The position numbers and the translations under genes are program-made. 64,000 bases of DNA, from assembly GCF_003334815.1 (NCBI RefSeq), contig NZ_QOWO01000006.1; one strand, 5' to 3'. Positions 1,136 through 6,113 of the stretch are shown here, piece by piece. Under the pieces are notes generated by a model that made no database searches, had not been told where the DNA came from, and saw nothing but the letters and a program-made list of their open reading frames with translations. Position 1 is the stretch's first letter. Every line of letters begins with the position of its first letter. Origin of the DNA: Escherichia coli (GTDB taxonomy: Bacteria > Pseudomonadota > Gammaproteobacteria > Enterobacterales > Enterobacteriaceae).

Positions 1136-4100
1136 TTATTCCGGGCGCGGCTTCAGCGGGAAGCGGCGGCGCACCAGCACAAAGAACAGCGGCACGAAGT
1201 AAATAGCCAGAATAGTGGCCGAAATCATCCCGCCCATTACGCCAGTACCCACCGCATGCTGACCACCGGAACCGGCACCCGTGCTGGTTGCCATTGGCAA
1301 TACGCCGAAGATAAATGCCAGCGAGGTCATCAGAATCGGGCGTAAACGCTGACGGCAGGCGTGGAGCGTCGCTTCAAACAGGTCGTGGCCTTTTTGGTTC
1401 ATCTCGTTAGCAAACTCGACGATCAGGATGGCGTTTTTCGCCGATAAACCAATGACCGTTAACAGGCCCACCTGGAAGTAAACGTCGTTTTCCAGCCCGC
1501 GCATCCAGGTTGCCAGCAGCGCGCCGATTACCCCCAGCGGCACGACCAGCATTACCGAGAACGGCACCGACCAGCTTTCATACAACGCAGCCAGACACAG
1601 GAATACCACCAGCAAGGAAATGGCGTACAGCGCCGGAGCCTGCGCGCCGGAAAGCCGCTCCTGATACGACATCGCCGTCCACTCCAGACCAAAGCCGTTT
1701 GGCAGCTGCTTCACTAACGATTCCATAATATCCATCGCCGTACCGGTACTGACCCCCGGTGCGGCTTCCCCAACAATCTCAACCGCAGAATAACCGTTAT
1801 AGCGTTCCAGACGCGGCGAGCCTGTTTCCCAGCGTGAGGTCGCGAAAGCAGAGAAGGGCACCATGCCGCCATCTTTATTTCGGACATACCAGAGATTGAT
1901 GTCATCTGGCAGCATGCGATACGGCGCAGCTGCCTGCACATAGACTTTCTTCACGCGACCGCGATCCATAAAGTCATTCACATAGCTCGAACCCCAGGCG
2001 GTTTGCAGTGTGTCGTTAATATCGTCGATAGCAACGCCCAGCGCCTGAGCTTTACGCTGGTCGATATCAATCTGCAACTGCGGACTGTCGTCGAGGCCGT
2101 TATGGCGCACACGGGTTAGCTCCGGGTTTTCCGCCGCCAGCGCCAGCAACTGATTACGTGCTGCCATCAGCGCATCGTGACCCGCTCCAGCGTGGTCCTG
2201 CAACTCCATATCAAAACCTGCAGAACTACCAAGACCGCTAATTGCTGGCGGGCTGCTGGCGATAACGCGAGCTTCTTTAATTTGGTTAAACGCCTTCGTT
2301 GCACGCTCGATAATGGCAAACGAGGTGCCGGTCTTACTGTCGCGTTCGCTCCAGTCTTTCAGGCGGATAAACATTCGCGCCACGTTTTGCCCGTTACCCC
2401 CAGGGCCAGAACCAACGGTGGCAAACACCGACATGATGTTGTCTTTTTCATGGGTGAAGTAGTATTTCTCGATTTGCTCAACGACTTTCAGGGTCTGTTG
2501 TTGCGTTGAACCGCTGGGCAACTGTACCGAGGTAGTAAACATGCCACGGTCTTCCAGCGGTAAGAACGACGTCGGCAAACGCAGGAACAGGAACACCATG
2601 CCGCCAAGCAGCAGGACATAAATCACAATCCAGCGCAGGCTACGGTGGAGAATTTTCGCCACCCCTTTTTCGTAGCGTTCGGCGTTGCGGTTAAACATCT
2701 GGTTAAACCAGGCAAAAAAGCCTTTTTGCCCATGATGCTCACCTTTTTTCAGTGGCTTAAGTAGTGTGGCACACAGAGCCGGAGTGAGGATCATCGCTAC
2801 CAGTACTGACAGCACCATCGCCGCAACAATGGTAATAGAGAACTGGCGATAGATGGCACCGGTGGTGCCGCCGAAGAAGGCCATTGGTACAAATACCGCC
2901 GAAAGAACCATCGCAATCCCGACCAGTGCCCCCTGGATCTGCCCCATCGATTTACGTGTGGCTTCGCGAGGAGTGAGTCCTTCCTCACTCATAATACGTT
3001 CGACGTTTTCCACCACCACGATGGCGTCATCCACCAGCAGACCGATCGCCAGCACCATCGCGAACATGGTTAAGGTGTTGACGCTGTAACCGAAGGCGTA
3101 AAGTACGGAGAAGGTTCCCATCAACACCACCGGCACGGCGATAGTGGGTATCAGCGTGGCGCGGAAGTTTTGCAGGAACAGATACATAACGAGGAAAACC
3201 AGAGCGATAGCTTCCAGCAGCGTTTTCACCACGTCTTCAATGGAGGCTTTAACAAACGAGGTGGTTTCATACGCCACCTTGTATTCCAGTCCATGCGGGA
3301 AATACTGCGCCAGCTCGTCGAGACGATTGAGCACCAGCTCCGCTGTCGCCATTTCGTTAGCGCCGGAGGCCAGTTTTACCCCCAGCCCGGAGGCTGGCTT
3401 ACCATTGAAGCGGCTAAGATAATCGTATTTCTCCGCCCCCATTTCGACGGTGGCGACATCGCCCAGCCTTACCTCTGAGCCGTCCTGATTGACCCGCAAG
3501 GTGATATCGCGGAACTGTTCTGGTGTTTGCAGCAGTGACTGGGCGTTAATGGTGGCGTTGAGCGCCTGCTTATCGACGGAAGGTGTACCACCAAGTTGCC
3601 CAACCGCAATCTGCGCGTTCTGTGACTCAATGGCATCAGTGACATCTTTAGCCGTCATCTGGAAACTGTTGAGTTTCGCCGGGTCCAGCCAGATACGCAT
3701 GGAATATTGCGAACCATAGGCATCGATATCCCCGACGCCATTCACGCGGCTTAACGGGTCCTGAATATTACTGGCAACATAATCAGCAATATCCTGTTTA
3801 TCCATCGAACCATCGGTAGAGACGAAGGCAATGGTCAGAATGTTGGTATCGCCGGTTTTACGCACCGTCACGCCCTGATTTTGCACCGCCTGCGGTAACT
3901 TTCGCATGGCTGATTGCAGCTGGTTTTGTACTTGCTGCACGGCTTCGTCCGGATCGGTGCCTGCTTTAAAACTTAAAGTGACAGATGCCTGACCGGTGCC
4001 ACTGCTCTGAGATGACATATACATGAGATTATCGAGGCCGGTCATATTTTGCTCGATAACCTGGGTCACGGTGTTTTCCAGCGTCTGGGCCGATGCGCCG

Positions 4101-4249
4101 GGATAGTTAGCGGTCACTCGCACATTCGGTGGCGCGAGATCGGGGTATTGTTCAACGGGCAATGAAAAAATCGCCAGGGTACCTGTCAGACACAACAGGA
4201 TTGCCAGCACCCAGGCAAAAATGGGGCGATCAATAAAGAAATTCGCCAT
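1136..4249 (-). CDS. acrD: RND-family aminoglycoside/multidrug efflux pump AcrD (1037 aa)
   Basis: Full-length 12-TM RND transporter; N-terminus [18 protein letters not shown]. Confidence 0.96.
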
Positions 4250-4317
4250 TAAAAGAGGACCTCGTGTTTCTGCGTATCGTTGTAGGCTTGACTTGCTTCA
4301 CTGTAGCGGCAAGGTAC

Positions 4318-4339
4318 GAGCCAATCGTGGAGAAAAAAA
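4318..4339 (-). promoter_or_regulatory. Candidate BaeR response-regulator box upstream of acrD
   Basis: Minus-strand sequence TTTTTTTCTCCACGATTGGCTC resembles the published BaeR consensus TTTTTCTCCATDATTGGC (1 mismatch), about 70-90 bp upstream of the acrD start. Confidence 0.45.
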
Positions 4340-4412
4340 GGAGTTAATGTAAATTATCATGCCCTTTTATACTGAACCTTAAGTGCAAGTATTCTTTGGT
4401 CAGTAGGAGGCA

Positions 4413-6113
4413 TTACATTAACTGACTTTCCTCACCCTCCGCAGAGCGAAAGCTAATACTCACTAACGTGCCGCCGCCGGAAGGTTGTGAAAAAGTCAGC
4501 GTCCCACCTAGCCGTTCCGCGCGTTCGCGCATGATATTCAGACCATAATGACCTTCGGGTTCTTTCGGTTCACCGATACCAATCCCGTTATCACGGATAT
4601 AAACCGTGTGATTGCCGTCCGGCGCGGTGACGCAACTGACGGCGATTTCGCTGGCGTTGGCGTGCTTCATCGCATTCAGCACCGCTTCGCGAATAATTTG
4701 CAACAAATGCACCTGCATTTGCGCATCCAGTGCCAGGGTTGGCAGACGGCAGTCGAGGGTCAGTTTGGCGCTGGTTTGATTTTGTAACGTATCCAGCATT
4801 TCCCTCAATGCGGAGGGGAGATCCGCCTGCTGCAGCGTCAGGCGGAAAGTAGTCAACAGCTCGCGTAACTGCCGATAAGCATCATTCAACGCCTGGGAAA
4901 AATCGGCCATGATACTTTGTGCGGTGGCGTTATCTTCCGGTATCGAACGCTTCAGTAACGTCAACTGGATACGTAAGTAAGAAAGTACCTGAGCCAGCGA
5001 GTCGTGCAATTCGCGGGCGATGGTCGCACGTTCTTCCATCAACAATAATTGCTGAAAATGCTTCTGCGCCTGATTAAAGTACAAACCGCGTCCCAGCATC
5101 GACGAAACGCTGTTAAGCAGCGGTTCTGATGATGAAACGTGACTATTTTGCCAGTGCAGTTCGCCGTAAACCGTCTCTTGCATTGTCACCGGTAAAATCT
5201 GCATCGGCAATTCCGGGTTTGGTTGCCCTTCGCTAATCCGCCAGTTTTCACCGACATTTAACTCCAGATATTCAGCCGCTTCATTGTCGCGAACAATCTG
5301 CAAAATATGGCGGAAACAATGCACATCAATCTGGCTAGTGTTCAGCGCCTGCGAACACTGATACAACACCTCCAGACGACGCTTGGCCTCGTGGAGATCG
5401 CGGGTCTTTTCTTCTACTGACGCTTCCAGCGAACGGTACAATTTATGCAGCTCGCTCGACATCTGGTTAAAGGTTTTTGCAAGCAGACCAAGCTCATTCG
5501 GCAGGTTGGTATCCAGCGGCGGCGAGTCGAACTGCCCGTGTTCAATACGCTGACTGGCGGTAACCAGCTGATTCAGCGGGGCAACCACCTGATGGCGTAT
5601 GCGGCGCAAAGTAAAAAAGACCAGCGTGAAAATACCGATGCCGCCAGCCAGGGAAATCGCCACCACCAGCAGCATTTTGCGTTCAGCGTAGTGCTGTAAA
5701 GCCAGTACGAACAGGTCTATCTGATTAACATAATTATTAATATTGGCCTGATACCACGGCAAATCGCCCTTGCTGAGCCGATTATTCATCTCCAGCCAGT
5801 TGGCATTCAGATGCGCATAGCGAGTTTTTACTGCTTCTGGCACATACCAGACGTTGAGGTTGGTTAATACCGGTGAATGCAGTGCCTGCTGAAATAACTG
5901 GCGATGTGCATTGAGTTGTGGACTGCCACTTTGCAAGTCGTAGCCCAGGCGGTAACTCTGCATACGCAGCGATCCGGCAATATTGATAGCCTCAGCGTCG
6001 CGCAAACTGCTCGCCAGAGTTAGCAGAGCGATACCCGTGGAAAGAATCGACAGCAGCACAATGTAAAAAAAGGCCCGGGCCAGACTGGCCGAGACGGGTC
6101 GTTTAACAATCAC
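4413..6113 (-). CDS. narQ: Nitrate/nitrite sensor histidine kinase NarQ (566 aa, GTG start)
   Basis: Track ORF extends to an ATG at 6137, but the known NarQ N-terminus MIVKRPVSASLARAFFYIVL corresponds to a GTG at 6111-6113; HAMP and HisKA_3/HATPase motifs present. Confidence 0.93.
   Translation of the reverse strand: MIVKRPVSASLARAFFYIVLLSILSTGIALLTLASSLRDAEAINIAGSLRMQSYRLGYDLQSGSPQLNAHRQLFQQALHSPVLTNLNVWYVPEAVKTRYAHLNANWLEMNNRLSKGDLPWYQANINNYVNQIDLFVLALQHYAERKMLLVVAISLAGGIGIFTLVFFTLRRIRHQVVAPLNQLVTASQRIEHGQFDSPPLDTNLPNELGLLAKTFNQMSSELHKLYRSLEASVEEKTRDLHEAKRRLEVLYQCSQALNTSQIDVHCFRHILQIVRDNEAAEYLELNVGENWRISEGQPNPELPMQILPVTMQETVYGELHWQNSHVSSSEPLLNSVSSMLGRGLYFNQAQKHFQQLLLMEERATIARELHDSLAQVLSYLRIQLTLLKRSIPEDNATAQSIMADFSQALNDAYRQLRELLTTFRLTLQQADLPSALREMLDTLQNQTSAKLTLDCRLPTLALDAQMQVHLLQIIREAVLNAMKHANASEIAVSCVTAPDGNHTVYIRDNGIGIGEPKEPEGHYGLNIMRERAERLGGTLTFSQPSGGGTLVSISFRSAEGEESQLM

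Follow-up and report, generated by a model that had tools for sequence, protein, structure and literature searches.

A probable BaeR operator upstream of acrD in Escherichia coli overlaps a larger conserved element

Introduction

The BaeSR core regulon comprises mdtABCD-baeSR, acrD, and spy (PMC3915751), and the DNA site of BaeR has been described in two ways. An 18-mer consensus, TTTTTCTCCATDATTGGC, is attributed to Nishino et al. 2005 in PMC3915751, PMC3799227, and PMC11644481, and a short BaeR box, TCTNCANAA, to Yamamoto et al. 2008 in PMC3799227, a paper that also singles out the CTNCA core of the box. In E. coli and S. enterica, the promoter regions of acrD and mdtA are stated to be bound by BaeR (PMC3915751); the same paper reports an electrophoretic mobility shift of Erwinia acrD DNA by BaeR and notes the low basal expression of acrD. 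BaeR has further been described as the primary regulator of acrD, and CpxR as an enhancer (PMC4107485).

The closest described systems outside the BaeR regulon control other efflux pumps. AdeR, which acts on adeABC in A. baumannii, binds AAGTGTGGAG-N-AAGTGTGGAG, or CTCCACACTT-N-CTCCACACTT when read on the other strand, and its crystal structure places one DNA-binding domain on each repeat (PMC5766154). The footprint of DzrR on desAB of Dickeya and Burkholderia is TTCTCCATCATATCTCCATATT (PMC10052836). Like BaeR, AdeR and DzrR are OmpR/PhoB-type regulators of RND pumps, and in each case two direct repeats with a CTCCA core and an 11-bp period lie next to the pump promoter; the proteins themselves and the bases flanking the repeats differ. 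A further comparison is offered by PhoB, which activates transcription in a class-II manner from a pho box that takes the place of the −35 hexamer.

The site upstream of acrD in E. coli is compared here with these systems. It is an already known member of the BaeR regulon that has been in the literature since 2005, so that the finding itself is ordinary, as a preliminary description of the locus had stated in saying that nothing new was revealed. The analysis is concerned with how far the site stands out from chance, how much of the surrounding DNA is conserved with it, and which other readings of the same bases have to be weighed.

The acrD upstream region and its match to the BaeR consensus

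The DNA analysed (the window) is a stretch of 64,000 nucleotides from an E. coli K-12-type chromosome, and the features that frame the site are the following.

1136 to 4249, minus strand: acrD coding sequence, an RND permease of 1037 amino acids and the regulated gene (open reading frame list and RefSeq annotation of identical DNA)
4260 to 4263, minus strand: GAGG, Shine-Dalgarno sequence of acrD (columns with little or no variation among 17 Enterobacteriaceae aligned with MAFFT)
4318 to 4339, minus strand: the flagged 22-mer, TTTTTTTCTCCACGATTGGCTC (read directly)
4320 to 4337, minus strand: 18-mer TTTTTCTCCACGATTGGC, identical to the consensus at 17 of 18 positions (consensus scan and leave-one-out matrix)
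4413 to 6113, minus strand: narQ coding sequence, the upstream neighbour on the strand of acrD (start according to the MG1655 annotation)

The 401 bases around the motif are 100% identical to those of E. coli K-12 derivatives, and of 5426 complete E. coli genomes, 5425 carry this region as a single copy, annotated as narQ followed by acrD. The spacer between the two genes measures 163 bp. Read directly, its plus strand at 4318–4339 is GAGCCAATCGTGGAGAAAAAAA, the reverse complement of which is exactly the minus-strand 22-mer that had been reported; the motif lies on the coding strand of acrD, 69–90 nt 5' of the ATG, and its suitable placement upstream of the gene is thereby borne out. The spacer is flanked by two copies of a 13-nt direct repeat, TGACTTGCTTCAC and TGACTTTCCTCAC, at 4289–4301 and 4423–4435 (plus strand), with 85% identity; with two copies only, this repeat is probably due to chance.

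The acrD 18-mer is the sole match to the consensus at up to three mismatches in the window, and it departs from the consensus at position 11 alone, where it has C in place of T. At up to one mismatch, the analytic expectation is 2e-4 matches per window and 0.016 per 4.64-Mb genome. Because the published consensus may derive in part from the acrD site itself, a leave-one-out matrix was built from the K-12 mdtA and spy sites only (TTTTTCTCCCTTATTGGC and TTTTTCTCCATAATTGGC), with the acrD site excluded. With this matrix the acrD site reaches 23.0 bits, the next best of the 128,000 positions in the window reaches 10.8, and 20 shuffled windows gave at most 17.9; by the exact tail probability, 4e-4 sites with the acrD score are expected per window and 0.03 per genome. 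The site is far beyond chance. The preliminary description had asserted a close match to the BaeR consensus, had named a score that is low against the genomic background as the result that would overturn it, and had proposed a comparison with the spy and mdtA promoters; the match holds, the score is anything but low, and the acrD 22-mer shares 19 of its 22 positions with the spy site and 16 with the mdtA site. All three sites share the frame TTTTTCTCC..ATTGGC and the same orientation relative to the gene.

The short BaeR box is matched only at eight of nine positions, which counts against the BaeR reading: the acrD sequence TCTCCACGA has G rather than A at position 8 and is not among the exact matches in the window. 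The CTNCA core is present. The short box TCTNCANAA itself occurs 13 times in the window, against 6.5 expected from dinucleotide shuffles, and the pattern GTAAA-N5-GTAAA occurs 63 times in the whole window at up to two mismatches, against 43 in dinucleotide shuffles. Since most of these matches lie inside genes, the excess of both short patterns probably reflects coding composition and not binding sites.

Conservation upstream of AcrD orthologues

A scan with the first 500 residues of AcrD, using one genome per species, yielded 80 loci separated by a sharp break in identity. The 35 AcrD-orthologue loci (77–100% identity) come from Enterobacteriaceae, Erwiniaceae, Pectobacteriaceae, Yersiniaceae, Hafniaceae, and Budviciaceae, and the remaining 45 are AcrB-like paralogue loci with at most 69% identity to the AcrD query. 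The coding strand was searched up to 400 nt upstream of the start codon for the 9-mer TTCTCCA[CT]G, allowing one substitution, and the 9-mer was found in 33 of the 34 usable orthologue loci as opposed to one of the 45 paralogue loci. The genera that keep this core range from Escherichia to Erwinia, Pectobacterium, Yersinia, Serratia, Rahnella, Hafnia, and Edwardsiella. The element is absent from a single orthologue locus, that of Budvicia diplopodorum (L032).

Two alignments delimit what is conserved. When 17 Enterobacteriaceae are aligned with MAFFT, the invariant columns between the genes are almost all confined to one block, a hexamer downstream of it, and the Shine-Dalgarno sequence together with the ATG. 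The extent of the block across the wider set is given by 34 sequences aligned without gaps on the 9-mer, in which the spacer DNA flanking the element is randomised. A composite pattern describing the whole element is found in 30 of 34 orthologue loci and in none of the 45 AcrB-like paralogue loci, a count that is descriptive, as the pattern was composed after the data had been seen. It occurs once per 6.5-kb locus, always 5' of acrD and on the acrD strand. As only 12 of the 35 orthologue loci have narQ upstream of acrD, the element belongs to acrD and not to its neighbour. Judged from the aligned loci, the core upstream of acrD shows purifying selection.

These counts also bear on the simplest alternative, namely that AT-rich DNA between two genes happens to resemble a BaeR site. 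Nothing speaks for it except the general AT-richness of spacers, and it is set against an expectation of 4e-4 per window, the strong conservation among orthologues, and paralogues that are devoid of the composite element; on the consensus scan, the leave-one-out matrix, and the orthologue and paralogue counts it was rejected, and its probability is negligible.

Extent and anatomy of the conserved element

The conserved unit, at about 4323–4357, consists of TTTAC and two CTCC cores and is larger than the 22 nt originally flagged. Its parts are as follows.

4323 to 4357, minus strand: whole conserved element, consensus aTaaTTTACAtTaTCTCCTt.tTTTCTCCACGtTT (34 sequences aligned without gaps on the 9-mer; MAFFT alignment of 17)
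4326 to 4334, minus strand: proximal repeat TTCTCCACG, CTCC core at 4329–4332 (near-invariant columns in both alignments)
4336 to 4346, minus strand: distal repeat TTAACTCCTTT, CTCC core at 4340–4343 (conserved columns in both alignments)
4349 to 4357, minus strand: upstream block ATAATTTAC, TTTAC at 4349–4353 (high information content in the 34 sequences)

The two CTCC cores are spaced by 11 bp, and both are conserved across the 34 sequences, so that the element has the tandem direct-repeat layout expected for a dimer of the OmpR/PhoB family. As a delimitation of the BaeR box, the 22-mer stands in part: it takes in the proximal repeat and the T-rich spacer, but it leaves the distal half (4340–4357) outside, and it includes a 3' tail, GGCTC, that has no conservation outside Escherichia. 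The ATTGGC tail is common to the three E. coli sites, yet at acrD it is conserved only in Escherichia, and other genera have GTTTGAC, GATTGCT, and similar sequences in its place.

A second CTCC core is also found upstream of the proximal core at the two other E. coli sites, at a distance of 10 nt at mdtA and 22 nt at spy, compared with 11 nt at acrD. Measured against the short BaeR box, the distal repeat of acrD, ACTCCTTTT, fits less well than the proximal one. The AdeR repeats are perfect 10-mers, whereas those of acrD are degenerate outside CTCC.

The upstream block ATAATTTAC is conserved as strongly as the two CTCC repeats and resembles neither of them; on the plus strand it contains one GTAAA, at 4349–4353, which is half of a CpxR box. 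An operator for another regulator of the OmpR family, whether CpxR or some other protein that binds CTCC repeats, is a reading of the element that would draw on this conserved TTTAC (GTAAA on the other strand) adjoining the repeats, on the very similar repeats recognised by AdeR and DzrR, and on the decrease of acrD by log2 1.9 in a cpxR knockout (supplement of PMC7657598). Against this, no tandem CpxR box, GTAAA-N5-GTAAA, was found in the spacer (4250–4412) at up to two mismatches, where GTAAA occurs only singly; the effect of CpxR on acrD has been reported to depend on BaeSR (PMC4107485); and the three E. coli genes that carry the 18-mer are exactly the BaeR core regulon. Recognition by such a regulator instead of BaeR is rated as highly improbable.

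Predicted promoter geometry

Downstream of the element, the alignments reveal one further conserved intergenic feature.

4300 to 4305, minus strand: predicted −10 hexamer TACAGT, TAnAGT across taxa (T, A, and the final T invariant in the MAFFT alignment of 17 sequences)

The distance from the 9-mer TTCTCCACG to TAnAGT is 20 nt in every one of the 34 sequences, the 17 nt between the conserved element and the hexamer are without conservation, and the distance from the 9-mer to the ATG is variable, ranging from 79 to 348 nt. In about 30 genera, the element is thus conserved along with its distance from the −10-like hexamer. In Pectobacterium (L023, 2134–2187, and L035, 2205–2258), the unit formed by operator and −10 hexamer lies 277–348 nt before the acrD ATG, a distance that implies a long 5' leader. 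At the other sites in K-12, the spy promoter has TACACT (L002, 2245–2250, minus strand) exactly 20 nt after the BaeR 9-mer, the same spacing as that of TACAGT at acrD, and the mdtA promoter has TACACT (L001, 668–673, plus strand) 10 nt after it, one helical turn less.

A consensus scan of 4100–4600 found no sigma-70 consensus promoter, and a −35 hexamer is not recognisable, which fits activator dependence of acrD. If TACAGT serves as the −10 hexamer, transcription would start at about 4293 (MG1655 about 2,587,551), and from that start the element would extend from about −64 to −30, with the repeats centred near −41.5. No entry for an acrD start near MG1655 2,587,54x–56x was found in Cappable-seq supplements, and the literature search found no paper combining acrD, BaeR, and a transcription start site. 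From the geometry of the conserved bases we infer a class-II-type, activator-dependent acrD promoter, and the low basal expression of the gene noted in PMC3915751 would agree with it. The pho box and the acrD element are alike in having tandem 11-bp direct repeats over the −35 region (a predicted one at acrD), no −35 consensus, and a fixed distance to the −10 hexamer; they differ in that the predicted BaeR element lies some 8–10 bp further upstream of the −10 hexamer, and in that the class-II mechanism at acrD is putative.

The narQ hairpin and the derived A at 4344

The T-run of the element and the bases next to it have a second possible role at the 3' end of narQ, where folding and an inverted repeat point to one more feature.

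4342 to 4423, minus strand: terminator-like RNA hairpin extending from the narQ stop codon (folding and inverted repeat)

The hairpin has a predicted free energy of −21.7 kcal/mol (z = −2.9), and one of 200 shuffles is as good. Its 3' arm, 4342–4351, is TTTACATTAAC and overlaps part of TTTAC and of the distal repeat; it is followed by CC and a run of seven U residues (4333–4339). This arrangement, a hairpin from the stop codon to 4342 with a U-tract behind it, is what could make the T-run and adjoining bases primarily an intrinsic terminator of narQ, with U-tract and 3' stem arm, and the likeness to a BaeR box secondary. Several observations weigh against that reading: a simple terminator scan of 4100–4600 gave no matches; the hairpin has an AU-rich outer stem around a long interior; acrD keeps the conserved block in the 23 loci with a different upstream neighbour; other taxa have a broken run (TTTATTT, TTAATTT, and TCAATTT), so that the U-tract is not conserved; and spy and mdtA have an equal T-run without the hairpin context. 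It is judged unlikely. A narQ terminator as the cause of the conservation was rejected, given that narQ adjoins acrD in only 12 of the 35 loci. In E. coli the T-run may nevertheless serve narQ as a terminator as well, one that has bases in common with the BaeR operator.

Within the distal repeat, E. coli differs from most of its relatives at a single base. On the acrD strand, position 4344, directly 5' of the distal CTCC, is A (TAACTCC), whereas most taxa have T (TATCTCC); T occupies the equivalent position in at least 80% of the 34 Enterobacterales sequences, among them those of E. albertii and of a divergent genome that bears the label 'E. coli'. The K-12 81-mer is found exactly in 4899 of 5425 E. 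coli records, while the T haplotype of the locus L004 is found exactly in none of 5426, and a laboratory mutation of K-12 was rejected as the origin of A4344 on these two counts. A4344 is to be regarded as derived and nearly fixed in E. coli. The same base adds a U–A pair that lengthens the stem of the terminator-like hairpin 3' of narQ.

BaeR control of acrD

The acrD site lies upstream of a BaeR-dependent gene and is oriented like it, as would be asked of a BaeR operator, and the site at 4318–4339 is very probably the BaeR operator of the E. coli acrD promoter. The agreement with known BaeSR control of acrD that had been pointed out earlier is found in the literature, in which both BaeSR dependence and binding of BaeR are reported for E. 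coli, Salmonella, and Erwinia (PMC3915751 and PMC4107485). The dependence of acrD on BaeR is clear, and the word 'direct' rests on older in vitro work cited elsewhere.

The evidence in vivo comes from a ChIP-exo study of MG1655 in 5% ethanol, which found BaeR peaks at spy and mdtA and none at acrD, and whose authors concluded that acrD is regulated indirectly by BaeR (PMC7657598). RNA-seq data in the supplement of the same paper show that acrD is down by log2 2.9 (7.5-fold, p = 2e-39) in a baeR knockout under ethanol and unchanged in the knockout without stress. Under indirect control the consensus match would be real but unoccupied in vivo in E. coli K-12, and BaeR would act through another factor, a reading that takes its force from the absent peak at a gene that is BaeR-dependent in the same study, and also from the derived A that the E. 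coli distal repeat carries at 4344. It has to contend with a site that is expected 0.03 times per genome and is nevertheless located exactly upstream of a BaeR-dependent gene, with the conservation of the element, at a constant distance from the −10-like hexamer, in about 30 genera, and with the in vitro binding to E. coli, Salmonella, and Erwinia acrD that is reported in PMC3915751. Indirect control is considered quite improbable. Among weakly occupied sites in general, negative ChIP-exo results are common. Because the acrD site is both rare and conserved, a missed weak peak is judged more likely than indirect control.

Under direct control, BaeR would bind as a head-to-tail dimer to the two CTCC direct repeats 11 bp apart, a distal repeat, TAACTCCTTTT, and a proximal repeat, TTTCTCCACGA, and the flagged 22-mer would represent the proximal repeat with its flanks. 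Bound at roughly −64 to −30, BaeR would recruit RNA polymerase in the class-II manner known from PhoB and its pho boxes, with the operator placed 20 nt before the weak −10 hexamer TACAGT and no usable −35 hexamer. Binding would turn on acrD, an otherwise near-silent efflux-pump gene, in envelope stress.

Implications for the BaeR regulon

A more far-reaching proposal is that the acrD operator across Enterobacterales is a composite of about 35 bp, made up of TTTAC and two CTCC repeats and locked 20 nt before TAnAGT. This is put forward tentatively, as possible rather than probable. Were it true, the published 18-mer consensus would be a mixture of a universal core, TTTCTCCAC, and an ATTGGC tail specific to Escherichia, and the distal half of the operator would be left out of it. 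The derived A4344 could in that case weaken the occupancy of the site by BaeR, which would explain the absent acrD ChIP-exo peak despite BaeR-dependent expression.

AcrD is an efflux pump for aminoglycosides and amphiphiles, and its induction by BaeSR contributes to adaptive drug tolerance. To what was known of this control the analysis makes modest additions, namely how far the conserved element really extends, its constant distance from the −10-like hexamer, a consensus tail confined to one lineage, and the derived A4344, and these could aid genome scans for the BaeR regulon and help to reconcile the negative ChIP-exo result at acrD.
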